This document shows positions 4,829-47,163 of a DNA stretch of 64,000 nucleotides, piece by piece. How positions within the stretch are numbered: the stretch's first letter is position 1; every line of letters begins with the position of its first letter. Where the stretch lies: NCBI GenBank assembly GCA_050248855.1, contig JBFWRP010000005.1:8389-72388 (forward strand), written 5' to 3'. The translations under genes were made by a program, and so were the position numbers. Source of the DNA: Planctomycetota bacterium. GTDB taxonomy: Bacteria > Planctomycetota > PLA2 > JAEUHO01. The notes below the pieces were generated by a model. The model was not told where the DNA came from. It did not search any database and saw only the letters and a program-made list of their open reading frames with translations.

Positions 4829-4917
4829 TCCGGCGTCGGGACGCGCCGGGGTACGTGCAGCGGACCTGGATCGCCTGCGGCGGGGGTCGTCCGTTGCGCG
4901 AACGGGACCGTACCGAG

Positions 4918-4998
4918 CCAGGTGAGATTCCCGCTTCACGCTGCGGCGCAACCAACCATGGGGAGATCAACCGGGGCGTGAAGCTGGAATCTCACCCG
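4918..4998. repeat. Large imperfect palindrome (22-bp arms ccaggtgagattcccgcttcacgc / gcgtgaagctggaatctcacccgg, about 33-nt loop) between convergent genes
   Basis: Seen directly. Shares the gtgagattcc/ggaatctcac arm motif with the palindrome at 39262-39360. Confidence 0.75.
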
Positions 4999-5032
4999 GC
5001 TCGTCCCCTGGGGTGCGGAGATGTCTCCGTGC

Positions 5033-5057
5033 GGGACCGAGCATCTGGCGAGCCGCC
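5033..5057. repeat. Copy of interspersed core motif gggaccgagcatctggcgagccgcc
   Basis: Identical 25-mer at 13289-13313. Reverse-complement copy (ggctcgccagatgctcggcc) at 46806-46825. Diverged copy at 18494-18512. Confidence 0.8.
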
Positions 5058-5084: not shown

Positions 5085-5510
5085 TCAGATAGGCAGGCTG
5101 CCGGGGCCGAGCTCGAGGATGGGCCCCCGCGGCCCCAACTGGATCGTGTGGACTCGCTCGAGGACGTCGTCGAGCACGATGCGGTCGGTGGCGTCCCCGT
5201 CGACGAGCATGCCGTTGCCGCCCAGGTTCTCGATCTCGACGCGATCGGACGCGTGGAGCGTGATCCGTACGTGCCGACGGCTGACGGAGGCATAGAGCAA
5301 CGAGCGCTGCACGTCGCGGCGCGCCGCGCCGCGCGATTTGAGGTACGCCGGGGAGCGCTTGAGCGACCAGTCGCACCAGCGGCTGCGCCCGACGACCACG
5401 CTCTGGCCCTCCGCGATGCGCAGGGTCTGGCCCTCGGCCAGCTCGCCCGTGCCGCGCAGCAGGACGTAGCAGGACGAGACGGGGGCCGACGGGGTCTCCA
5501 GCGGGTTCAT
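5085..5510 (-). CDS. FHA-domain protein (phosphothreonine-binding)
   Basis: 141 aa. FHA signature GRSRWCDWSL...VSRRHVRITLH...VEIENLGGNGMLVDG. Lies 45 nt downstream of the kinase gene on the same strand. Confidence 0.8.
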   Translation of the reverse strand: MNPLETPSAPVSSCYVLLRGTGELAEGQTLRIAEGQSVVVGRSRWCDWSLKRSPAYLKSRGAARRDVQRSLLYASVSRRHVRITLHASDRVEIENLGGNGMLVDGDATDRIVLDDVLERVHTIQLGPRGPILELGPGSLPI

Positions 5511-5554
5511 GGCTTTGGTCCTTCCTGGATCCTACGACGACGACGGGCGCGGGA

Positions 5555-12961: not shown

Positions 12962-13288
12962 GATCCTACCTGCGGCTCCGCCTCGGGACGTTCCGGACGT
13001 CGGTGACCCTTCGCAGCAGGAGGGCCGCCAGTCAGGTGCACGCCTACACCGCTGGGTACCCGCTCACCTACCCCGAAAACAAGCCGCCAGGCGCGCATAG
13101 ACGCCGCTCGGAGCGGAGCGCCACCTCCACGAACCGGGTCGCCAGGGCGACGGTAGCGCGCCCGCATCGGCGACGACTCGTGGTCTGGTCCCCCGTTGGC
13201 GTTCCGCGCTCACGCGCGGATTCGGTGCTCCGGCTTCGCCTGCGCAGCAGGGGTGCTGGTTCCGCACCACCCCTGCACCCCTCACGGT

Positions 13289-13313
13289 GGGACCGAGCAT
13301 CTGGCGAGCCGCC
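13289..13313. repeat. Copy of core motif gggaccgagcatctggcgagccgcc
   Basis: Identical to 5033-5057. Confidence 0.8.
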
Positions 13314-13420
13314 CGTCCGCACTCCAGGGGCTGAACACTGCAATGGAAGGTGCCTGAACTCCGGGCTCGGACAGGACAGCCACGCTTCCATGGGAGGGGG
13401 TGCCGCGCGCATCGAGACGC

Positions 13421-13520
13421 GGTACGGAGGCGGGGATTTCTTCCGCAACTTGCCGCCCTGCGCTTCGGCATGCGGAAGTGCCCATCGGCAAGTTGCGGAA
13501 GAATTCCCCGCCTCCGTACG
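13421..13520. repeat. Giant palindromic element (35-bp arms, 30-nt loop)
   Basis: Left arm ggtacggaggcggggatttcttccgcaacttgccg. Right arm cggcaagttgcggaagaattccccgcctccgtacg. Its loop contains catgcggaag, the reverse complement of cttccgcatg in the loop of the 39262-39360 element. Confidence 0.8.
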
Positions 13521-13544
13521 GGCTTTGCCGTCGGCATGAAGAAC

Positions 13545-15313: not shown

Positions 15314-17233
15314 TCAGGCCTCCATGCCGTACTTCTCGAGCTTGCGCTGGAGGGTGAAGCGGCTGATGCCGAGCAGGTCGGAGGCCTTGGTCTTGTTGCC
15401 TTCCGCCTGGACCAGCGCCTTCTCGATCTCCGTCCGCTCGACGTGCTCCACGAGATCGACCAGGTTGCGGACGGGGCCGTCGTCGCTGGACGGGCGGCCG
15501 CTGCCGCCGCGGCGGATGGGCTCGGACAGCACGTCGATGGTGATGACGTCATCGCCCAACGCGACCATCCGCTTCACCTCGTTCTCGAGCTCGCGGATGT
15601 TGCCGGGCCAGTCGTAGGCCTGGAGCGCCTGCGCGACGCCGGGGCCCAGCGTCTTCGGCGCGCGGCCCTTGCCGGCATGCAGGCGCAGGAAGTGGTCCGC
15701 CAGCAGCGGAATGTCCTCCTTGCGGTCGCGCAGCGGCGGCAGGTCGATCGTGAGCACGCGCAGGCGGTAGTAGAGGTCCTCGCGGAACTCCCCGGCCCGC
15801 ACCAAACGGTCCAGGCGCTTGTTGCTGGCCGAGACGATGCGGACGTCGACCTTGCGCACGGACTTGCCGCCGACCGGGCGTACCTCGCCCTCCTGGAGCG
15901 TACGCAGCAGCTTCTTCTGCATGTCGGGGCTCATGTCCGCGACTTCGTCGAGGAAGAGCGTGCCCTGATCGGCCAGCTCGAAGAGGCCCTTCTTGTCGCG
16001 GTCCGCGCCGGTGAACGAGCCGCGTACGTGGCCGAAGAGCTCGCTCTCGAGCAGCGTGTCGGTAAGCGCGGCGCAGTTCTCCGACAGGAAGGCCTGTCGC
16101 GCTCGCGGGCCGTGGGCATGGATGGCGCGGGCAATGAGCTCCTTGCCCGTTCCGCTCTCGCCGGTGATCAGCACGGGCTCGTCCGTGCGCACGATCTTGT
16201 CGAGCAGGCGCAGCACGTCCCGCATGGCCTGCGACTCGCCGATGATCTGCGGGTAGACGCCCTGCGGGGCCCCCACCTTGCGCAGCCGGTCGCGGACTTC
16301 CGTCAGCTCGCGGGCTTGGCCTTCGACGCGCAGCTCCAGGCGCTGGTTGAGGTCGTCGACCTCGATGAGTCGCCTCTCGTTCTCCTCGTAGAGCGAGGCC
16401 CGCTCGATGGCGGTGGCCGCAAGATCGACGAGCGACGTCAGCATGTCCCGCTCGGCATCGCCGAAGGCGCCCGCCTGCAGGCGGTTGTCCACGTAGACGG
16501 CGCCCGCCGTGCGGCCCCGGACCTGGAACGGCAGGCACAGCACGCTACGGGCGCGGATGGCGCTGATCGACAGTGCCCCGGAGAAGCGCTCGTCCTCGAC
16601 CGCATTGGCCGTGAGGACGGGCTCGCCGGTGGCCAGCACGCGGTCGACGATGGACTGGGAGAAGGCCGCCTCGGGGCTCTGCACGTCCTCCTGCTCGAAG
16701 TTGCGGGCCACGTGGACCGTGGCCCCGCCATCCGGGCCCGGGCGGCGCAGCACGAGGAAGCCCCGCTCCGCGCCGGCGATCTCGACGACGTGGTCGAGGA
16801 TGATCCTGAGCAGCGGGTCCAGATGCAGCTCGCTGTTCAGGGCCTTGACGACGCGCTGGAGGCGCTCGAGCCGATCGCGCTCGTCGTCCAGCCCGATGAC
16901 CTGGGTGGAGTGGCCGGGGTCGTCGTCCGTGTCGGCGTCCGGCGGCGGGGCCTGCTCGAACCAGAGCCGGGCGTTGCCGACACGAAGCTCGTCCCCGGGC
17001 CGGATGCGCGAGCGCTCGACGAGGTGGCCGTTCAGCCGGGTGCCGTTCTGGCTGCCGAGGTCGCGCACGACGTACTGGTCCGGGGCGACGCGCTCGACGG
17101 TGCAGTGCTCGCGGGAGGCCCGGAGGTCGAGAACCGCGATGTCGTTCTGCGGGGCGCGGCCGATGCGCACGACATCCTTGGGCAGGTCGTAGACCGTCCG
17201 GGTGTCCTTCTCGTCCAGGATGTAGCGCGGCAC
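15314..17233 (-). CDS. Sigma-54-dependent transcriptional activator with N-terminal FHA and GAF domains
   Basis: GTG at 17233 preceded by AGGAGG. FHA motif TVYDLPKDVVRIGRAPQNDIAVLD...SREHCTV. GAF region. AAA+ sigma-54 activator motifs GESGTGKE and GSFTGA (GAFTGA variant). C-terminal Fis-type HTH. Confidence 0.9.
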   Translation of the reverse strand: MPRYILDEKDTRTVYDLPKDVVRIGRAPQNDIAVLDLRASREHCTVERVAPDQYVVRDLGSQNGTRLNGHLVERSRIRPGDELRVGNARLWFEQAPPPDADTDDDPGHSTQVIGLDDERDRLERLQRVVKALNSELHLDPLLRIILDHVVEIAGAERGFLVLRRPGPDGGATVHVARNFEQEDVQSPEAAFSQSIVDRVLATGEPVLTANAVEDERFSGALSISAIRARSVLCLPFQVRGRTAGAVYVDNRLQAGAFGDAERDMLTSLVDLAATAIERASLYEENERRLIEVDDLNQRLELRVEGQARELTEVRDRLRKVGAPQGVYPQIIGESQAMRDVLRLLDKIVRTDEPVLITGESGTGKELIARAIHAHGPRARQAFLSENCAALTDTLLESELFGHVRGSFTGADRDKKGLFELADQGTLFLDEVADMSPDMQKKLLRTLQEGEVRPVGGKSVRKVDVRIVSASNKRLDRLVRAGEFREDLYYRLRVLTIDLPPLRDRKEDIPLLADHFLRLHAGKGRAPKTLGPGVAQALQAYDWPGNIRELENEVKRMVALGDDVITIDVLSEPIRRGGSGRPSSDDGPVRNLVDLVEHVERTEIEKALVQAEGNKTKASDLLGISRFTLQRKLEKYGMEA

Positions 17234-17402
17234 GTGCCTCCAACCTCCTGACGGCCTGCGGGGAGGTCGTAGGATACGGGCCGCGGGCCGTCGTCCCCCG
17301 ACCGCGCCGACCGACGCATCTGGGGGAGGCGTCCCGTAGGCTGCCGCTCGACCCCCCAGGGCCCCCCTACCCCGGGTCCGGTCGTGTGCGGTCGCGGAAG
17401 GG

Positions 17403-18467
17403 ATGGCCATGCCCAAGCACTTCCTCCTCGAGGAGCTCGCCGGTCTTGCCGGGGTGCCGGTGCGTCAGGTGCAGGCCTGGGAGACCGACGGCCTGCTCGG
17501 GGACGTCCCGCGCGACGCCTCCAAGCGCCCGCTCTACGGCTTCGAGCACGCCGAGCGCTGCGTGGAGCTGGGCGGACGAGGGCTCCAGCGCCGCCTGTGC
17601 GTGGTCAACCAGAAGGGCGGCGTCGGCAAGACGACCACGGCCTTCACCCTCGCCGCGGCGCTGGCGGACCTCGGGCGCCGCGTGCTCTGCGTCGACCTCG
17701 ACGCGCAGGCCAACCTCACCACGTCTTTCGGTTTCGATCCCGACGCGCTCGATCGCACCAGCGCGGACCTTCTCACCGAAGACGACGTCGGCCCCGAAGA
17801 CGTCATCCTCGAGACCAACCTCGAGGGCGTCCACGCGATTCCCGCCGACATCAAGCTGGTCAACGTGGAAGCCCGCATCCAGGACGAGATGCAGCGCGAG
17901 CGCATCCTCGACCGCAAGCTGTCGCCGCTCTACGACCGCTACCACTTCATCGTGTTCGACTGCCCGCCCAACCTCTCCCGCGTCACGATCAACGCGCTCT
18001 GCGCCAGCGAGGAAGTGATCGTGCCGATCGAGACGCAGTCCTACTCGATCAAGGCCATCAGCGACCTGACGCACACCTTCACGCTGCTCAAGCGCAAGAT
18101 GGGTCACGACCTCACGGTCTGGCTGCTCCCCACCAAGGTGGACCGCAGCGTCAAGATCGCCACCGACATCCTCGACGCGCTCGACGACGCGTTCCGCGGT
18201 CGCCTGCTGGACCCGATCCACGTCGACCCCACCCTGATTCGCGCCCCGCTGCTGTGCGAGCCGATCACGCGCGCCTACCCGAACGCCCCCTCGGCGCTCG
18301 AGTACGCGCGCCTGGGGCGGTTCCTCACCTTGCACGACGCCGAGCGCGCGCAGTGGATGGGCCTCACGCTGGCCGAGCGTCGCCGGATCATCGAGAAGGC
18401 CGCGCGCGACGTCGCCGACGAGGCGGATCTTCCGCCGGCCATCAAGAAGAAGCGGCTATGGGGATGA
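17403..18467 (+). CDS. ParA/MinD-family ATPase with N-terminal MerR-like HTH
   Basis: Deviant Walker A NQKGGVGKTTTA. N-terminal LLEELAGLAGVPVRQVQAWETDGLL resembles a MerR HTH. 354 aa. Confidence 0.75.
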   Translation: MAMPKHFLLEELAGLAGVPVRQVQAWETDGLLGDVPRDASKRPLYGFEHAERCVELGGRGLQRRLCVVNQKGGVGKTTTAFTLAAALADLGRRVLCVDLDAQANLTTSFGFDPDALDRTSADLLTEDDVGPEDVILETNLEGVHAIPADIKLVNVEARIQDEMQRERILDRKLSPLYDRYHFIVFDCPPNLSRVTINALCASEEVIVPIETQSYSIKAISDLTHTFTLLKRKMGHDLTVWLLPTKVDRSVKIATDILDALDDAFRGRLLDPIHVDPTLIRAPLLCEPITRAYPNAPSALEYARLGRFLTLHDAERAQWMGLTLAERRRIIEKAARDVADEADLPPAIKKKRLWG

Positions 18468-18480
18468 TGGTTGCTTGGCG

Positions 18481-18650
18481 TGCGGCTAGGCGGCTCGCCG
18501 AGTGCTCGGCGGCGCCGGCGCGATCCGCTCCTCGAGTGAACAGACCACGAGTCGTCGCGGATCGCTTGGCGGCGCCTTCGCCCTGACGAGCCGAGGTGCG
18601 ACGGCCGCGACTCGAACCCAGGCGTGCTTGCTTCTGGGTGGCTTGCGCAC
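18481..18650. repeat. Interspersed structured repeat element (paralogue of 46769-46956)
   Basis: Shares ctcctcgagtgaacagaccacgagtcgtcgc (30/30) and gccctgacga with the copy after ftsK. Here the shared core is flanked by an internal inverted repeat gcgatccgc...gcggatcgc. Sits between convergent genes. Confidence 0.8.
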
Positions 18651-18668: not shown

Positions 18669-19742
18669 TTACCCCGACACGAGGCTCCGCACCTCTTGGA
18701 GCACCCGCTCCACGGGGATCTTCGCGAGGCACGGATGGCCGGGCACGGGGCACTCGCGCAGGAAGCACGGACTGCACGGCTCGGGGTCGTGGACCAGCCG
18801 GAGCTCGCCGGGGCCGAGCGGCGCACTGACGATCGGGTCGGTTGCGCCGAACAGCGCGACGACCGGTGTCCCCACCGCCGTCGCGCAGTGCATGGGTCCC
18901 GTGTCGTTCGTCACGAGCAGGTCCGCACTGGCGAGCAGCCCCAGGAGCACGCCCAGGTCCGCCGTGCGCCCGACGCCGCGCAGCAGGTCGGGCGCACGGG
19001 CCGCCACCTGCGCCTCGATCGCCGCTGCCGCCGGCGTGCCCACCGTCACCACGTCGATCCCGCGCTCGCCGAGCCGCCGCGCCAGCTCCGCGAACGAAGC
19101 GACGGGCCAGCACTTGGCCGGCCCGTAGCTGGCCCCGGCCTCGATGGCCACGAGCGGTCGCTCGCTGCGCCGACCGAGCGCAAGCAACAGGCGCCGCGCA
19201 CGCTCGCGCTCGCCCTGGCTCACGGCGAGCGGCGGCGGCTCGGCTTCGGGAACCTCCACGCCGAACGGCGCCGCAAGCGCGGCGAAGAACCGGCTGCGGT
19301 GGGCGCTACGGAGCGGCTGCCAGCCACGCACCCCGTGCGTCAAGAGCGGCCCCTTGCCGCGCGCGCCGAAGCCCACGCGCACCGGGATGCGCGCCAAGAA
19401 GGGCGCCAGCGCCGCACGATGCCCCCGCGGAAAGACCACCGCCGCGTCGAACGCGCCGTCCCGAAGCACGCGCCGGCTGGCGAGCAGGTCCCGCGGCGTG
19501 CGGTCGCGGCCGGTTGGGAGCACGTCGTGGACGCCGGGGAGCCGCGCGGCGAGCGGCAGGAACGGCTGCGGCGCCTGCGCCACGAACGTGGCGTCGGGCA
19601 GCGAGGCCGTGATGGCCGCCACGGCGGGCCGCGCCATGACGACATCGCCAAGCCACGAGGGCAAGCGCAGCAAGACGCGCTGCAAGCCGGGCGAAACAGG
19701 GGGAGCGGACGTCGTCGCCGGGACGACGTCGGTCGGGCTCAC
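18669..19742 (-). CDS. Glycosyltransferase family 9 (heptosyltransferase-like), second copy in window
   Basis: GTG at 19742 in a GTGA overlap with the upstream stop. LQRVLLRLPSWLGDVVMARP N-terminus. C-terminal NDTGPMHCATAVGTPVVALFG GT9 signature. Confidence 0.8.
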   Translation of the reverse strand: MSPTDVVPATTSAPPVSPGLQRVLLRLPSWLGDVVMARPAVAAITASLPDATFVAQAPQPFLPLAARLPGVHDVLPTGRDRTPRDLLASRRVLRDGAFDAAVVFPRGHRAALAPFLARIPVRVGFGARGKGPLLTHGVRGWQPLRSAHRSRFFAALAAPFGVEVPEAEPPPLAVSQGERERARRLLLALGRRSERPLVAIEAGASYGPAKCWPVASFAELARRLGERGIDVVTVGTPAAAAIEAQVAARAPDLLRGVGRTADLGVLLGLLASADLLVTNDTGPMHCATAVGTPVVALFGATDPIVSAPLGPGELRLVHDPEPCSPCFLRECPVPGHPCLAKIPVERVLQEVRSLVSG

Positions 19743-37222: not shown

Positions 37223-39244
37223 ATGCCCATCCTCATCCGCTCCGTTCGCCGCTTGCCCCTCGCCCTCCAAGCCGCCGCCGTGGCGACCCTCCTCACCGCG
37301 TGCGGTGCTCCTACCGACACGCTGCGTCCGGCGACGCTGTCGATGTCGCCGCGCGTCGTGGACGCCAGTGCCAGCGCGCCGTGCGTGATCCGGGGCATGG
37401 ACTTCGGTGACGGGCCCGTCTCGGTGCGCCTCATCGACCATGACGGTCGCATCGTGGGCCCCGTGCGGACCACCGAGCCCAGTGCCGACGGCCACCAGCT
37501 GGCCATGCTGACGGCGATCCTGCCCGAGCTCGAAGACGACACGTGGGTGCGCGTGCAGATCCAGACGGCCGACGGGCGCATCGCCTGCACGGACGAGAAC
37601 GTGCTCGTGAAGGCCGGCGTCGAGGCGCCGCGCCTGATCGATGGCCGCGAGACCAACCCGTCGGACGCCGCCATGGGCTCGACCGGAATCGGTCTGCGAC
37701 GCGATGTGCCGCCGGCCTTCGCCGATGGGGTGGCGACGCTGGCCCGACCCGAGCAGAAGAACCCGCGCACCATCAGCAACACGTTGGTGGCGCAGCCGGC
37801 GGCCCTGCCGCCCGTGACCGGGGCGGTGCCCTCGGACCTGTTCTGGTGCTTCGGCCAGTTCCTCGACCACGACCTGGACCTCTCGCCCGAGAGCGAGAGC
37901 GGCGAGCGCGCCGACGTGGCGATCCCCGCAGGTGACCCGTGGTTCGACCCGTTCGCGACGGGCGCCGTCGTGCTGCCCTTCAAGCGCTCGGCCGCCCTCA
38001 CCGGGAGCGGCGACGGGCCTGGCGACCCGCGCCGGCCCATGAACGCCATCACGGCGTGGATCGACGGCTCGAACGTGTACGGCTCCGACCCGGAACGGGC
38101 CCGCGCGCTGCGCACGCTCGACGGCACGGGGCGCCTGCGGGTCGACGCCGAAGGCTTCCTGCCCCTCAACACGGAGGGCTTTCCCAACGCGCCTACGCCG
38201 CACGACCCCACGCTGTTCCTCGCGGGCGACGTCCGCGCCAACGAACAGGTCGGTCTGACGGCATTGCACACGATCTTCGTCCGCGAGCACAACCTCGTGG
38301 CCGACGAGCTGCGCGCGGCCAACCCGCACCTGTCCGGGGACGAGATCTACGAGGCGGCCCGCCGCTTCGTCGGCGCCGAGCTGCAGGCGATCGCCTACGA
38401 GGAGTTCCTCCCGACGCTGCTCGGCGAGGGCGCGCTGCCGCCGTACGCAGGCCTGCGCACGGACGAAGACGCCTCGATCGGCGTGTTGTTCTCGACGGCC
38501 GCGTTCCGCCTGGGCCACACGATGGTCGGCGGCACGATCCTCCGGCTCACGCGCTACGGGACGCCGCTTGCCGAGGGCCATCTGAGCCTGCGCGACGCGT
38601 TCTTCCAGCCGCAGATCCTGCGTACGGAGGGCGGTGTGGATCCCGTGCTACGCGGCTTGGCGGCCAACCCGGCCCAGGCGATCGACCCGTTCATCGTGGA
38701 CGACTTGCGCAACTTCCTGTTCGGCCCTCCCGGCGCCGGCGGCCTCGATCTCGCAGCCTTGAACATCCAGCGCGGTCGCGACCACGGCCTGCCGTCGTAC
38801 AACGCGTGTCGCGTGGCCTACGGCTTGGCGCCGCGCGCGTCGTTCGACGAGGTGACGAGCAACCCCGAGGTGCGCACGCGTCTCGCGGCCTGCTGGGACA
38901 GCCCCGATGTCGCCGACCCGTGGCCGGTGCTCCTGGCCGAGGACCGTGCTCCGCTCTCGCTCGTGGGCGAGACGCTGACGACGGTGCTCGCCGACCAGTT
39001 CCGCCGCGTGCGTGACGCCGACCGGTGCTGGTACGAACGGATCTACCTCGGCGAGACGTTGGCGCGTCTGAAGGCCACACGGCTCGCGGACGTGATCCGT
39101 CGCACGACGACGATCCGCAACGAGATCTCGAGCACGGCCATGCTGGTGCCCGAAGTCGGGGCCGCTTCCACCAAGGGCGCCGTGCGCGAGAGCACGCGCA
39201 GCGCCGCGGAGCTGGGCAAGGTGGCGCTGGCCTTGGCGAAGTAG
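37223..39244 (+). CDS. Animal-type haem peroxidase (An_peroxidase family) lipoprotein
   Basis: ATG at 37223. Lipobox LLTACG. Distal His motif FGQFLDHDL. Proximal region FRLGHTMV. Ca-binding-like LDGSNVYGS. 673 aa. The antisense 620-aa ORF is rejected. Confidence 0.8.
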   Translation: MPILIRSVRRLPLALQAAAVATLLTACGAPTDTLRPATLSMSPRVVDASASAPCVIRGMDFGDGPVSVRLIDHDGRIVGPVRTTEPSADGHQLAMLTAILPELEDDTWVRVQIQTADGRIACTDENVLVKAGVEAPRLIDGRETNPSDAAMGSTGIGLRRDVPPAFADGVATLARPEQKNPRTISNTLVAQPAALPPVTGAVPSDLFWCFGQFLDHDLDLSPESESGERADVAIPAGDPWFDPFATGAVVLPFKRSAALTGSGDGPGDPRRPMNAITAWIDGSNVYGSDPERARALRTLDGTGRLRVDAEGFLPLNTEGFPNAPTPHDPTLFLAGDVRANEQVGLTALHTIFVREHNLVADELRAANPHLSGDEIYEAARRFVGAELQAIAYEEFLPTLLGEGALPPYAGLRTDEDASIGVLFSTAAFRLGHTMVGGTILRLTRYGTPLAEGHLSLRDAFFQPQILRTEGGVDPVLRGLAANPAQAIDPFIVDDLRNFLFGPPGAGGLDLAALNIQRGRDHGLPSYNACRVAYGLAPRASFDEVTSNPEVRTRLAACWDSPDVADPWPVLLAEDRAPLSLVGETLTTVLADQFRRVRDADRCWYERIYLGETLARLKATRLADVIRRTTTIRNEISSTAMLVPEVGAASTKGAVRESTRSAAELGKVALALAK

Positions 39245-39261
39245 CGACCACGGCGCCGTGC

Positions 39262-39360
39262 CGTACGGAGTCGGGTGAGATTCCAACCTCGGGCCGCCAT
39301 GCCCTTCCGCATGGGTTGGGTCCTTGCGGCCCGAGGTTGGAATCTCACCCGACTCCGTAG
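39262..39360. repeat. Giant near-perfect palindromic element (35-bp arms, 29-nt loop) between convergent genes
   Basis: Left arm cgtacggagtcgggtgagattccaacctcgggccgc. Right arm gcggcccgaggttggaatctcacccgactccgtag. 34/35 pairing. The loop contains cttccgcatg. Confidence 0.85.
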
Positions 39361-39402
39361 CGCGGAAGCAGCGTCTACGGGTCGGAGCCCGAGGCCGCGA
39401 GG

Positions 39403-44328: not shown

Positions 44329-46770
44329 ATGGCCGCACGATCCACCTCTGCCGCCGCGAGCAAGAGCCGCGCGCGGACCCGTAGTCCTGCCGTCGAGGCG
44401 GAGCCCATCGGCCTCGAGCTGATCGGCTTGGCCCTCGGTCTGGCCTCCTTGCTGTTGTTGGCGGCATTGGCGACCCAGGCTCCCGCGTCCGCGGGCGGGG
44501 GCTGGCGCAACGCCGTCGGAGCGACGGGTCGCGTGGTCGCGCAGGCGCTGACGGGGGCGCTGGGCCTCGGGGCGCTGGCCGCACCGATCTTCGGCCTGAC
44601 CTGGGCGATCGCCTGCCTGCGCGGGCGGCCGCCTGGACGCTGGGCGCTCAAGGCCGCCCTGCTGCCCGTCGCGATGGCCCTCGTGGCCGTGCTGGCGGCC
44701 CTGCTCTTCGAGCGGCTGCACCTGCCGGGCGTCGACCGCTACGGACCCGGGGGCTACTTCGGCCTCGCGCTGGGCACCGCGCTGTATGACGTGATCGGAC
44801 CGTCCTCGAGCCTCGTGCTCGCCGTCGGTCTGCTCGCGGTCGGGGCGTTGCTCGTGGACTTGTCCATCTCCGGCGTCGCGCGGGGCGTCCTGTCCCGCGC
44901 CGGCTCCCCGTCCACCGCGAAGACCTCGCGCAAGGCCAAGCCGCGCCGCGCTCGCGAGGCCGACGAAGTCACGAGCGAAGACGAGACGTGGGACGACGCG
45001 GAGGACGAGGACGAGGAGGGCGACGAGGAGTACGACGAGGACGAGTACGAAGACGACGAGGAGTGGGACGAGGAGGACGAAGACGACGAGGAGGACGAGG
45101 ACGACGAGGCGGAGGCCGAGGACGACGACGATCCCGCGCGTGCGGAGGCGGCGGCCCGGCGGGCCGCGGCCCGCGAGCGCCGCGAGCTGCCTCCGGTCCC
45201 CCGCGACAAGAAGCCCTGGAAGCCCAAGGGCAAGTACGTCCCGCCCCCCATCGAGCTCCTGGCCTGCGGCAAGTCCGTCGAGGAGGCCAACGTCAAGGAG
45301 GAGGTCGAGGCCCGCGCCGACACCCTCGAGGAGACGCTCCGGGCCTTCCGGATCGAGGCCAAGGTGGTCAGCTACCGCCGCGGCCCGGTCATCACGTTCT
45401 ACGAGGTCCAGGTGCCGCCGGGCGTGGCGGGCAGCCAGGTCGCCAAGCGCGCCGACGACATCGGCCGGGCGCTCAAGGTCGGCAAGGTCCGCGTCGTCAC
45501 GAACATGCGCGGCTTGGACACGATCGGCATCGAGGTAGGCAACGAGCAGCGCGACGACGTGACGCTGCGTGACTTGCTCGAGGAGTCGGGGCCCAAGATC
45601 GACCGTCTCGAGATCCCGCTGCTGCTCGGCCGCGACACGTCGGGACGCCCCGTCGTGGAGGATCTGGCCAAGATGCCGCACTGCTTGATCGCAGGCGCCA
45701 CGGGCGCGGGCAAGAGCGTGTGCATCAACTCCGTGCTGCAGTCGATCCTGTTCACGCGCGGGCCCGACGAGGTCAACCTGATCCTCGTGGACCCCAAGCA
45801 GGTCGAGCTGGCCTCCTACGAGGGCATCCCGCACTTGGCCACGGGCGTCGAGACCGACCCCAAGCGGGCCGGCAAGATCCTGCAGTGGGCCGTGGAGCGG
45901 ATGGAGGAGCGCTACCACCAGCTCAAGTGCACGGGCGTGCGCAACGTCAAGGGCTACAACGACCTGCCCGCGGCCCGGCGCGCAGCCTCCCGCGAGCGCC
46001 ACGGGATGGACGAGGAGACGCTGCCCGACCGCCTGCCCTACATCGTGATCGTGGTCGACGAAATGGCCGACCTCATCATGACGGGCGGCAAGGACGTCGA
46101 GCTGGCCATCACCCGCTTGGCGCAGAAGAGCCGCGCGGTCGGCATCCACCTGATCCTGGCCACGCAGCGCCCCGAGCGCACCGTCATCACGGGCCTCATC
46201 AAGGCCAACATGCCGACGCGCATCGCCTTCACCGTGTCGAGCAAGCTCGACAGCCGCGTCGTGCTCGACCAGAACGGCGCCGAGGCCCTGCTCGGCATGG
46301 GCGACATGCTCTTCCTCTCGCCGCGCAGCATGTTCCCGATCCGCGGCCAGGGCGCGCTGGTCACCGACGACGAGGTGCTCGAGGTCGTGCAGGACCTCAA
46401 GAACAAGTACCCGGACGTCGAGTACCAGGACCTGCTCAAGCAGCAGCAACAGACGCAGGGCGATCCCATGGCCCGCGACGAGCTCTACAACGACGCCGTG
46501 CGGCTCGTGCTCTCCAAGAAGCTCGGTAGCGCCAGCATGCTCCAGCGCTGCATGGGCATCGGCTACACACGGGCCTCGCGGCTCATCGAGATGATGGAGG
46601 AGCAGGGCGTGGTGGGCCCCCACCAGGGCAGCAAGGCGCGCGAGCTCTACGTGGACCTGGACGAGTGGGAGGCCGACCTGGCCGCCCGCGGCCCGGCCGA
46701 GAGCCCGGAAGGCCCGACGGCCGAGTACGACCACGACGACCCGCCCGCCGTCGACACCAGCTGGGACTAG
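44329..46770 (+). CDS. ftsK: DNA translocase FtsK
   Basis: N-terminal 4-TM domain. Long acidic linker. Motor with Walker A GATGAGKS and Walker B [8 protein letters not shown]. C-terminal gamma winged helix [31 protein letters not shown]. 813 aa. Confidence 0.9.
   Translation: [813 protein letters not shown]
44995..45135. repeat. Low-complexity GAN/GAG acidic coding tract (D/E run in the FtsK linker)
   Basis: Encodes [46 protein letters not shown]. Confidence 0.7.
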
Positions 46771-46984
46771 AGGTGTCGCTACTGCCCGGCGTGGGGAGGT
46801 GCGGCTCGCCAGATGCTCGGCCGCGCACCACCATCGGCTCCTCGAGTGAACAGACCACGAGTCGTCGCCGATGGTGGCGCGCTGCCGTCGCCCTGACGAC
46901 CCGATCCGCGTCGTAGGCCCAGAAGGCCGGGCCCACGCGGACTCGGCCACGAAGATCCGCCCGCCGTCGACACTAGCTGGGACT
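46741..46984. mobile_element. 188-bp structured repeat element flanked by a 28-bp direct duplication of the ftsK 3-prime end (putative MITE-like insertion)
   Basis: DR1 at 46741-46768 is ccgcccgccgtcgacaccagctgggact. DR2 at 46957-46984 is ccgcccgccgtcgacactagctgggact (27/28). The interior carries the reverse-complement core ggctcgccagatgctcggcc and the 30-mer shared with 18518-18550, flanked by the inverted repeat caccaccatcggc...gccgatggtggcg. Confidence 0.65.
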
Positions 46985-47163
46985 GGCCGGCGGTGCCGGG
47001 CTCCTCCGCGTGCCGAGCCAGGCCCCCCGCACCCTTCAGCGCCCGTTGGGCAGGTCCGATCCAGCGGTACGGGGCGGCGTGCCGATCCGGCGGCGCGTCG
47101 TGCCCCCGTTCGGGGCGACTCCCCCCCTGTTCCGTGGGGGAGTCGTCCATTAGGGTCTTGCCG

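Follow-up and report, generated by a model that had tools for sequence, protein, structure and literature searches.

What does an exact 30-nt match between two intergenic segments of one genome stand for? The question arises from a 64,000-nt stretch of Planctomycetota bacterium (assembly GCA_050248855.1, contig JBFWRP010000005.1, positions 8,389 to 72,388; 71.6% G+C), here called the window, in which the 30-mer CTCCTCGAGTGAACAGACCACGAGTCGTCG lies on the plus strand at 18528-18557 and at 46838-46867 and nowhere else, with no further site at three or fewer mismatches. Chance would be expected to give no such match, and 100 dinucleotide-preserving shuffles yielded none, even at three mismatches. 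An earlier note on this DNA had joined the two segments by this match and by a shared 10-mer, gccctgacga, and had proposed a functional RNA hairpin with a conserved loop and diverged stems that still pair. Both matches are indeed present, the 10-mer (GCCCTGACGA) following the 30-mer at 18580-18589 and 46890-46899, and so are the two different inverted repeats said to enclose the 30-mer: gcgatccgc/gcggatcgc at 18520-18528/18558-18566 in the first segment (copy A) and caccaccatcggc/gccgatggtggcg at 46826-46838/46867-46879 in the second (copy B). The gene context was also correctly read: copy A follows a gene for a ParA-like AAA_31 ATPase that ends at 18467 and faces a convergent family-9 glycosyltransferase (heptosyltransferase) gene that ends at 18669, and copy B follows ftsK, which ends at 46770. 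In this study, we show that the two segments belong to a family of intergenic elements and that the hairpin is kept throughout this family.

The similarity of the two copies, which are ~78% alike, is not limited to the 30-mer and the 10-mer but spans ~103-105 nt (18491-18593 in copy A, 46802-46903 in copy B) and includes a conserved base helix and internal loops. Nor are there just two copies in the window, since a profile of copies A and B (nhmmer) and a covariance model add a disrupted third copy and a short relative. The third, copy C (13135-13314, minus strand), consists of a 5' arm at 13289-13314 and a 3' half at 13135-13186 that starts with AGACCACGAGTCGTCG, separated by a 102-nt insertion of another repeat (13187-13288). 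The relative, D (4996-5057, minus strand), shares the 5' arm GGCGGCTCGCCAGATGCTCGG and the base helix GGCTCG/CGAGCC, which here enclose a small hairpin; ~20 nt upstream of it is the TGA stop of a same-strand open reading frame (ORF; 5085-5531), and another palindromic repeat follows. Run on the whole window with its filters off, the covariance model returned the two full copies (113 bits for the 103-nt copy A, 142 bits for the 102-nt copy B) and the disrupted one, the remaining matches being generic long palindromes.

Beyond the window, the 17-mer common to its three copies, AGACCACGAGTCGTCGC, matched 76 loci when scanned against one genome per GTDB species. About 33 of these loci, with ~35 copies, come from one metagenome-assembled genome (MAG), Planctomycetota bacterium HK-STAS-PLAN-1; other true copies occur in at least six further Planctomycetota MAGs, namely Ww498, PL25a_bin.13, MO_197.B21, MO_035.B4, bin_bo_oilr1.015 and casp150-mb.218, and the rest are chance matches without the element. 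The fetched loci (numbered with an L below) gave 58 nhmmer and 68 covariance-model matches, among them a tail-to-tail inverted pair (L048:447-613 on the plus and 739-874 on the minus strand) and three head-to-tail tandem pairs (L024:2288-2515, L040:412-609 and L042:5714-5942). A stricter pattern applied to metagenomes found only 17 contigs, most of them from these same organisms, with several that break off within the repeat, and pattern scans gave one match, by chance, in viral contigs and none in plasmids. Searched with the whole window, Rfam 15 returned no match at gathering thresholds; in E-value mode there were generic long-hairpin matches to microRNA precursor models (best 20.8 bits, threshold 88) and a score of 13.6 for Pxr (threshold 80). 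Homologues of FtsK and of the ParA-like protein place the window in Planctomycetota, with closest relatives that are uncultured and come from the same kinds of samples. The element is thus a lineage-specific, multi-copy dispersed hairpin repeat of a small group of uncultured Planctomycetota.

Is the hairpin a property of the two window copies or of the whole family? In an almost gap-free alignment of 36 distinct copies, the element is one long imperfect hairpin of 36 pairs, made up of a base helix (CGGCTCG... / ...CGA(C/G)CCG), three conserved internal loops (GAT/CC, TC/GTC and CC/CT), a 13-pair upper stem and an apical region. In copy A the base helix reads CGGCTCG/CGAGCCG, and the internal loops and the upper stem GCGATCCGC/GCGGATCGC lead to the apical region, which is the 30-mer itself; the upper stem of copy B is CACCACCATCGGC/GCCGATGGTGG. 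Standard pairs make up 89% of the cells (copies by pairs), and 19 of the 36 pairs are changed on both sides, in 109 cells, values unreached in 500 shuffles and to be set against 12-18 cells when the partners were slid by 1-3 columns; since many compensated variants are common to several copies, the independent events are fewer than this cell count. Pair columns alternate between states (AU18/GC15, CG18/UA16, AU16/GC14 and GC24/CG9), and in helix 1, which joins the 5' arm to the 3' arm, 7 of 10 pairs are changed on both sides. The earlier note had suggested adding copies and looking for covariation, and had named copies lacking any paired context around the 30-mer as the finding that would speak against a hairpin. 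The covariation is strong, the stems around the 30-mer pair by compensatory change across the 36 copies, and every copy that bears the 30-mer has a paired context. Its picture of a conserved loop on diverged stems holds in part: the stems do vary while keeping their pairing, but the base helix and the internal-loop motifs (GATGCTCGG, CCGTCGCC) are conserved like the loop, and there are subfamilies with a different or expanded apical region. It is the middle stem that changes only by compensatory substitution, whereas the base helix, the three internal-loop motifs and the apical 30-mer are conserved.

The six apical pairs are invariant and, as they never vary, the fold of the 30-mer has to be inferred rather than read from covariation. 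In the likely model, a CGAG/CGAG tandem G.A is flanked by CUC/GAG and GUG/CAC helices, and the loop, AACAGAC, has 7 nt. This fold is in keeping with the subfamilies that have GUAGC-UCG-GCUAC at this point or carry an inserted 40-nt hairpin there. There is no consistent pairing that would extend the helix into the linker and the tail, and the TGCG motifs on both sides are features of the consensus, not repeats within each copy. We also considered and rejected three further identities. A larger structured RNA, suggested by a GNRA-like GUGA loop in copy C, was dismissed because the extra domain is a separate repeat found in both orientations. A small ORF of 27 amino acids in copy B (ATG...TGA; MLGRAPPSAPRVNRPRVVADGGALPSP) loses its frame in copy A, where the length differs by 1 nt, and variants in loop length shift it as well; 15 of the 36 copies have CGA for its TGA, a change that covaries with the pairing partner. 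Finally, a tRNA-derived origin of the GACTCGAACCC tail was rejected, ARAGORN finding no tRNA or transfer-messenger RNA in the window.

Orthologous copies in other genomes indicate how strongly the hairpin is held. At the ParA/heptosyltransferase locus, the window and locus L101 (JACKGX01) are 85.6% identical over 6 kb, and the hairpin of copy A is identical at 105 of 105 positions, against 26 mismatches in the last 300 nt of the ParA-like gene, 22 in the 74 nt of trailer after the hairpin and 47 in the last 300 nt of the heptosyltransferase gene; the linker before the hairpin has 3 mismatches and 4 gaps in 22 nt. The poorly conserved trailer includes the tail of copy A (18594-18640), with its GCGACTCGAACCC motif, and related tails of the form GCGAC(C/T)TGAT(C/T)C stand behind many other copies. 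At the ftsK locus, copy B matches its orthologue in L077 at 103 of 104 positions, whereas ftsK differs at 21 of 300 and a duplicated ftsK remnant at 8 of 82. Overall, the flanks of orthologous copies differ by 7-30% between genomes. Homogenisation among copies cannot explain identical orthologues, because copies A and B are only ~78% alike, and the simplest reading of these alignments is that purifying selection acts on nearly every hairpin position; by this comparison of sequences, strong constraint between species is shown. In L079, whose FtsK has 90% amino-acid identity, the element is kept after TAG with nearly all of its helices re-paired with other bases.

Where, then, does the element lie with respect to genes? 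Copy A begins 23 nt after the TGA stop (18465-18467) of the ParA-like gene (17403-18467), behind a linker (18468-18490) with a weakly conserved GTGCGG motif and an otherwise free sequence, and copy B begins 31 nt after the TAG stop of ftsK (46768-46770), behind a linker at 46771-46801. For 22 copies, a long same-strand ORF with high G+C at third codon positions (GC3) ends 0-37 nt before the hairpin, usually 20-37 nt and most often 26-29 nt; its stop codon is TAG in 19 cases, 12 of them at 26-29 nt, and TGA in 3. By eye, ~3/4 of all copies have a TAG at such a distance, and a G precedes it in ~2/3 of copies to give GTAG, while the linker has no sequence conservation except for a GGGTGCG motif. 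At the HK-STAS-PLAN-1 loci, TAG is the stop of 12 of 13 ORFs adjoining the element, compared to 40 of 102 other ORFs (Fisher p = 2.8e-4). TGA is usually the dominant stop at a G+C content of 71.6%; the 28 high-GC3 ORFs of the window end in TAG (14), TGA (12) or TAA (2), and TAG usage in the lineage is 39-50%. Six matches have a convergent ORF ending within ~60 nt downstream, and copies between convergent genes suit a 3'-end role, not a promoter. One copy (L051:2640-2840) lies 34 nt past the CCA end of a tRNA gene, so that the rule seems to be a position close behind the end of a gene, not necessarily one with a stop codon. The bias in position and orientation is real.

Such placement raises the question of whether the element acts on UAG itself, as a recoding or termination signal in which a protein-bound hairpin would modulate RF1-dependent termination, read-through or ribosome release. 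The invariant loops, the TAG enrichment in both samples (19 of 22 copies; 12 of 13 against 40 of 102 elsewhere), a spacing held at 26-29 nt where the linker sequence is not, and an ftsK that stops with TAG when the element is present and with TGA when it is absent all fit this idea. However, copies also stand behind TGA and TAA stops, a tRNA gene and another repeat, and TAG is already common in this lineage. No reading frame runs through the element, indels shift the frame between subfamilies, and FtsK keeps its native C-terminus, ...AVDTSWD. Moreover, a ribosome that terminates at the stop does not have the hairpin foot, at least 27 nt farther on, within its mRNA channel. A link to UAG termination is thus possible but mechanistically weak, and we regard the signal as very unlikely.

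The interpretation that we favor, though tentatively, is that of a dispersed hairpin repeat of the REPIN, ERIC or Correia kind that has been retained by its host as a 3'-end or protein-binding hairpin in the 3' untranslated region (3' UTR). The element would have spread as a small non-autonomous unit, similar to a REPIN or a miniature inverted-repeat transposable element (MITE), and would then have been kept by the host. It would be transcribed in the 3' UTR of the upstream gene and, where genes converge, also in that of the opposite gene. Its stable hairpin may define or protect the mRNA 3' end as a terminator or exonuclease block, and its invariant loops may be recognised by a protein.

Several results weigh against this interpretation, the first of which concern the strand that folds. 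The plus strand has 60 A.C mismatches versus 20 G.U pairs, and the A.C mismatches are concentrated at three positions at which C-G, C.A and U-A states coexist, a pattern expected if the complementary strand folds (C-G, U.G and U-A); counted by column, the ratio is 12 to 10, so that this balance is a tilt toward the complementary strand, though not a proof. The predicted energy is lower for the reverse complement in 36 of 36 copies (mean of -64.8 versus -52.9 kcal/mol). These data weaken a simple sense 3'-UTR RNA and leave room for a hairpin that acts bidirectionally or within single-stranded DNA. In addition, there is no T run after the hairpin (GGTGCGACGG, TCCGCGTCGT) on either strand; the element is therefore not a canonical intrinsic terminator, its 103 nt being a further departure. 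Neither a simple terminator nor a simple stabiliser predicts the tight spacing of 26-29 nt or the TAG bias. On the side of the mobile origin, local alignment of the flanks reveals no duplication, short or long, except for a unique case at ftsK; no mobilising enzyme was found in the Pfam family summaries considered below; and no clean pair of empty and filled sites was found, the alternative allele at the ParA locus being another palindromic repeat in a recombination tract. A mobile origin is inferred only from the copy number, the subfamily structure and the analogy with known repeats.

The same evidence bears on the functional RNA of the earlier note. The stems do covary, and an orthologue conservation far above that of the flanks points to selection, but a discrete functional RNA of 60-150 nt is not established. 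With ~35 copies in a single genome, and with other palindromic families mixed in and interrupting it, the element is a dispersed repeat, and neither a promoter nor a terminator speaks for a gene of its own; a requirement for the hairpin in single-stranded DNA would give equal covariation, and the reverse complement folds better in all 36 copies. A more specific proposal is that of independent small-RNA genes, each with a sigma-54 -24/-12 promoter formed by the conserved 5' arm (GGCTCGCCAGATGCT) and with the upper hairpin as the body of the small RNA. The GG-N10-GC spacing fits such a promoter, a sigma-54 activator gene lies in the window (15314-17416), and the 5' arm also precedes different downstream sequences. 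Yet the arm has 3 mismatches to TGGCACG-N4-TTGCW, a level of match found at 68 sites in the window where 96 are expected by chance, and six copies, with TC at columns 18/119, do not keep the GG. Because the 5' arm covaries with the 3' arm in helix 1, it must lie inside the folded strand and not upstream of a transcription start, and some copies point into convergent genes. With its match at chance level and its arm in a covarying helix, the promoter was rejected, and small-RNA genes of this design are highly improbable.

How copies are gained and lost can be followed at two loci. Among FtsK orthologues, the closest three loci (the window, L077 and L079) carry the element, and three more distant ones (L080, L078 and L081; 84%, 78% and 77% amino-acid identity) are element-free and end in TGA; all of the FtsK proteins keep the same C-terminus, so that no truncation of the gene by the element took place. 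Past the element, the final 68 nt of ftsK recur, stop codon included (46703-46770 and 46917-46986, with the best 41 nt at ~90% identity), with the TAG of the downstream copy changed to TGG in the window and still TAG in L077, and with no duplicate in L079. This is not a normal target-site duplication. A diversity-generating retroelement (template and variable repeats) was rejected as its source, since the types of difference are mixed and A in the gene against G or C downstream is the reverse of what is expected; the partial Pfam family summary for the 31 window ORFs contains no reverse transcriptase. Directly after the TAG of the duplicated ftsK end, L077 carries an extra insert of ~205 nt (L077:5677-5880) with terminal inverted repeats of ~30 nt (GGGTGCCTGATTCCGCGCTGCGG...), which is missing from the window (at 46987) and resembles a recent, polymorphic MITE insertion.

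Most of the close strains have, at the ParA locus, a TAG stop together with a palindromic repeat of another kind. Loci L101 and L099 are 100% identical outside a 1.3-kb patch (L101 2499-3847), within which they are 4% different in the ParA-like gene, by synonymous changes only, and unrelated in the spacer. The identity outside the patch means that the difference arose by homologous recombination and not by transposition, a further point against a mobile origin; the patch is a recombination import that swapped one intergenic repeat for another. Across the copies, a search for target-site duplications found no excess (the best 7-mer match between flanks averages 5.17 within copies and 5.03 between copies), and a 15-mer repeat near L012, which lies inside the next gene, was taken as a coincidence. 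No terminal inverted repeats exist beyond the hairpin arms, and in the loci examined no pair of arms encloses an ORF, as a parent element would. Pfam family summaries (the 25 most frequent families) for 98 ORFs of 26 copy-bearing loci, ~7% of one genome, and for the 31 window ORFs contain no Y1_Tnp or HUH domain; the only transposases found near copies are of the IS110 family and DDE_Tnp_1, and IS110 sits in a different palindromic repeat.

The main rival explanation is a purely selfish REPIN- or MITE-like element without host function, whose single-stranded DNA hairpin would be the substrate of a transposase acting in trans (an HUH/Y1 enzyme of the RAYT type, or another) and would insert 3' of a TAG target. 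The high copy number and the subfamilies that share the same compensated stem variant (ACC/GGT, AGC/GCT or GCC/GGC) are in line with it, as are the tandem pairs in L024, L040 and L042, the inverted pair in L048, the mosaics with other palindromic repeats and nested insertions, and the better fold of the complementary strand. The fixed distance from a trinucleotide to the hairpin foot recalls the left ends of IS200/IS605 elements. Each arm contains a small palindrome (GGCG-GCT-CGCC and GTCG-CCCTGA-CGAC), as in the "clover" form of REPINs (PMC3116915), and GTAG accompanies ~2/3 of copies, as in tagged REPs, that is, tagged repetitive extragenic palindromes (PMC3733652). What this explanation does not accommodate is the state of the orthologues, which are 99-100% identical where their flanks are 7-30% different, since dead copies should decay at the neutral rate. 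In addition, there is no target duplication, neither Y1 nor HUH appears in the summaries just described, and the linker between TAG and hairpin is unconserved in sequence, unlike the end of a transposon. We consider the purely selfish element unlikely, although far from negligible, and a selfish REPIN-like element acting as single-stranded DNA and one with a host function are not mutually exclusive.

A bottom-strand hairpin is also the form of an attC-like or other site-specific recombination site that marks gene cassettes. The element stands directly behind ORFs, with its orientation fixed; as an imperfect palindrome in the range of 100-130 nt, it is highly alike among the copies of a genome and varies at its center, and its complementary strand is the more stable one. 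However, its ends have no RYYYAAC/GTTRRRY core sites, its copies are scattered beside core genes (ftsK, the parA-like gene, a tRNA gene and the cbb3 oxidase region) and form no cassette arrays, and its apical part is the most conserved one, whereas the central part of attC is the least conserved. The lack of core sites and of an array organisation effectively refutes an attC site, and we find the idea hardly conceivable.

The same genomes contain several other long palindromic repeat families, often directly downstream of the element or of stop codons. Together with the nested insertions, this indicates a lineage rich in REP-like repeats, with the element as one family among them. A second family, a palindrome of ~110 nt (GTACGGAGGCGGGGAATTCTTCCGC...GCGGAAGAATTCCCCGCCTCCGTAC), lies just after stop codons and occurs in the window at 13405-13535 (on both strands) as well as at L060:980-1085, L001:398-497, L088 and L099:3585-3680; it fills the ParA/heptosyltransferase spacer in place of the hairpin element in most close strains. 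A third, GGGTGAGAT(C/T)T(T/C)CC...GGAGATCTCACC, is found in the window at 4899-5018 and 39250-39374 and in L049, L025, L051, L066 and L017. It is often downstream of the hairpin element, and at 39250 it starts ~24 nt after the TAG stop of a gene ending at 39244. A module of ~100 nt (CGTGAGGGGTGCAGG...CCGCGCGTGAGCGCGG) lies inside copies of the element in the window (13187-13288, minus strand), L028:5690-5780, L072:95-190 and L067:3615-3740, at the same position in the 5' arm in the first three of these loci and in the loop, in the opposite orientation, in L067; judged from these positions, it behaves as a separate mobile repeat. Finally, an insertion sequence of the IS110 family is present in two copies (L063:1707-3218 and L066:4180-5700) with identical transposases of 378 amino acids (DEDD_Tnp_IS110 and Transposase_20). 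The two sit at one and the same point, GGGGTCTGA|TGGTGTTAAG, in a further palindromic repeat, a placement reminiscent of REP-targeting IS110/IS1111 elements.

To which known systems does the element come closest? With REPINs it shares much: both are extragenic hairpins of ~100 nt in tens to hundreds of copies, with conserved inverted ends and a region between them that is paired by compensatory change, both are predicted to fold in single-stranded DNA or mRNA, both are inherited vertically with long persistence, and both occur as singlets, tandem arrays and inverted pairs. The conserved inverted ends and the compensated long hairpin that characterize REPINs are thus present, but so is a conserved apical region: the apical loop of the element is as conserved as its ends, whereas the spacer of REPINs is their least conserved part. 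The element also differs from REPINs in its strong orientation bias relative to the upstream gene, in that no RAYT was found for it among the Pfam family summaries, and in that it has no GTAG at the hairpin foot but a (G)TAG ~27 nt upstream that is usually a stop codon. Directly beside the foot stand G(T/G)GC (5') and GAT (3'), with TAG 17-37 nt upstream, which is not the arrangement of a tagged REP. With the tag away from the hairpin foot and no RAYT found, membership among the REPINs or tagged REPs is not established. REPs tagged with GTAG or CGTC have been reported at gene ends in the PVC superphylum, including Planctomycetes (Di Nocera et al. 2013, PMC3733652). They resemble the element in being palindromic and lying at gene ends, and the element often has GTAG upstream and CGTC in its 3' arm, but they measure 20-40 bp, with stems of 5-13 bp and a tag that abuts the stem, compared to 103 nt, at least 30 pairs and a distant TAG in the element (PMC3733652).

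A second set of related systems, like the element, consists of repeats that fold into a long hairpin beside genes. Repeats of the ERIC/IRU, Correia, RUP/BOX and SMAG types are co-transcribed with genes, are species- or genus-specific, measure 100-170 bp and form RNA hairpins in transcripts, where they affect mRNA processing or stability (RNase III and RNase E). Correia repeats (CREE) are co-transcribed with genes and form a long RNA hairpin (PMC2649163); they differ in having terminal inverted repeats of 26 bp, a duplicated TA target and sites for IHF and promoters (PMC2649163), features not seen in the element. As for termination, the element is like an intrinsic terminator in being a stable GC-rich hairpin tens of nucleotides past a stop, with bidirectional action possible between convergent genes. 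However, intrinsic terminators measure 20-40 nt and have evolved individually, whereas the element, at ~100 nt, is repeated and has invariant loops and no U-tract; "I-shaped" intrinsic terminators that lack a U-tract have been proposed for high-GC bacteria. We regard the element as a new family within a class of intergenic repeats that is familiar from bacteria, with REPINs and the co-transcribed ERIC and Correia repeats as its closest systems.

To our knowledge, almost no non-coding elements have been described in Planctomycetota. The present family is a well-defined hairpin with strong covariation that marks the 3' ends of dozens of genes and is unchanged across species that are ~14% apart in DNA. 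Since the repeat breaks metagenome assemblies, modelling it is useful for binning and annotation. In a bolder view, which we hold to be rather improbable, the nearly invariant, host-selected module would be a shared docking site for a lineage-specific protein or RNase at a fixed distance behind the mostly UAG stops of dozens of unrelated genes; having spread like a mobile element and then become fixed, it would govern termination, ribosome release or 3'-end formation, and would amount to a genome-wide 3'-UTR signal of a kind not described in bacteria. If the element is instead a REPIN-like replicator, it would extend persistent, vertically inherited repeats to a new phylum and to a new architecture, with a conserved apical loop and a placement linked to stop codons. 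And if it is a 3'-end or protein-binding signal, as we tentatively favor, it would reveal a way of ending or protecting transcripts in a high-GC lineage without classical U-tract terminators at these sites.

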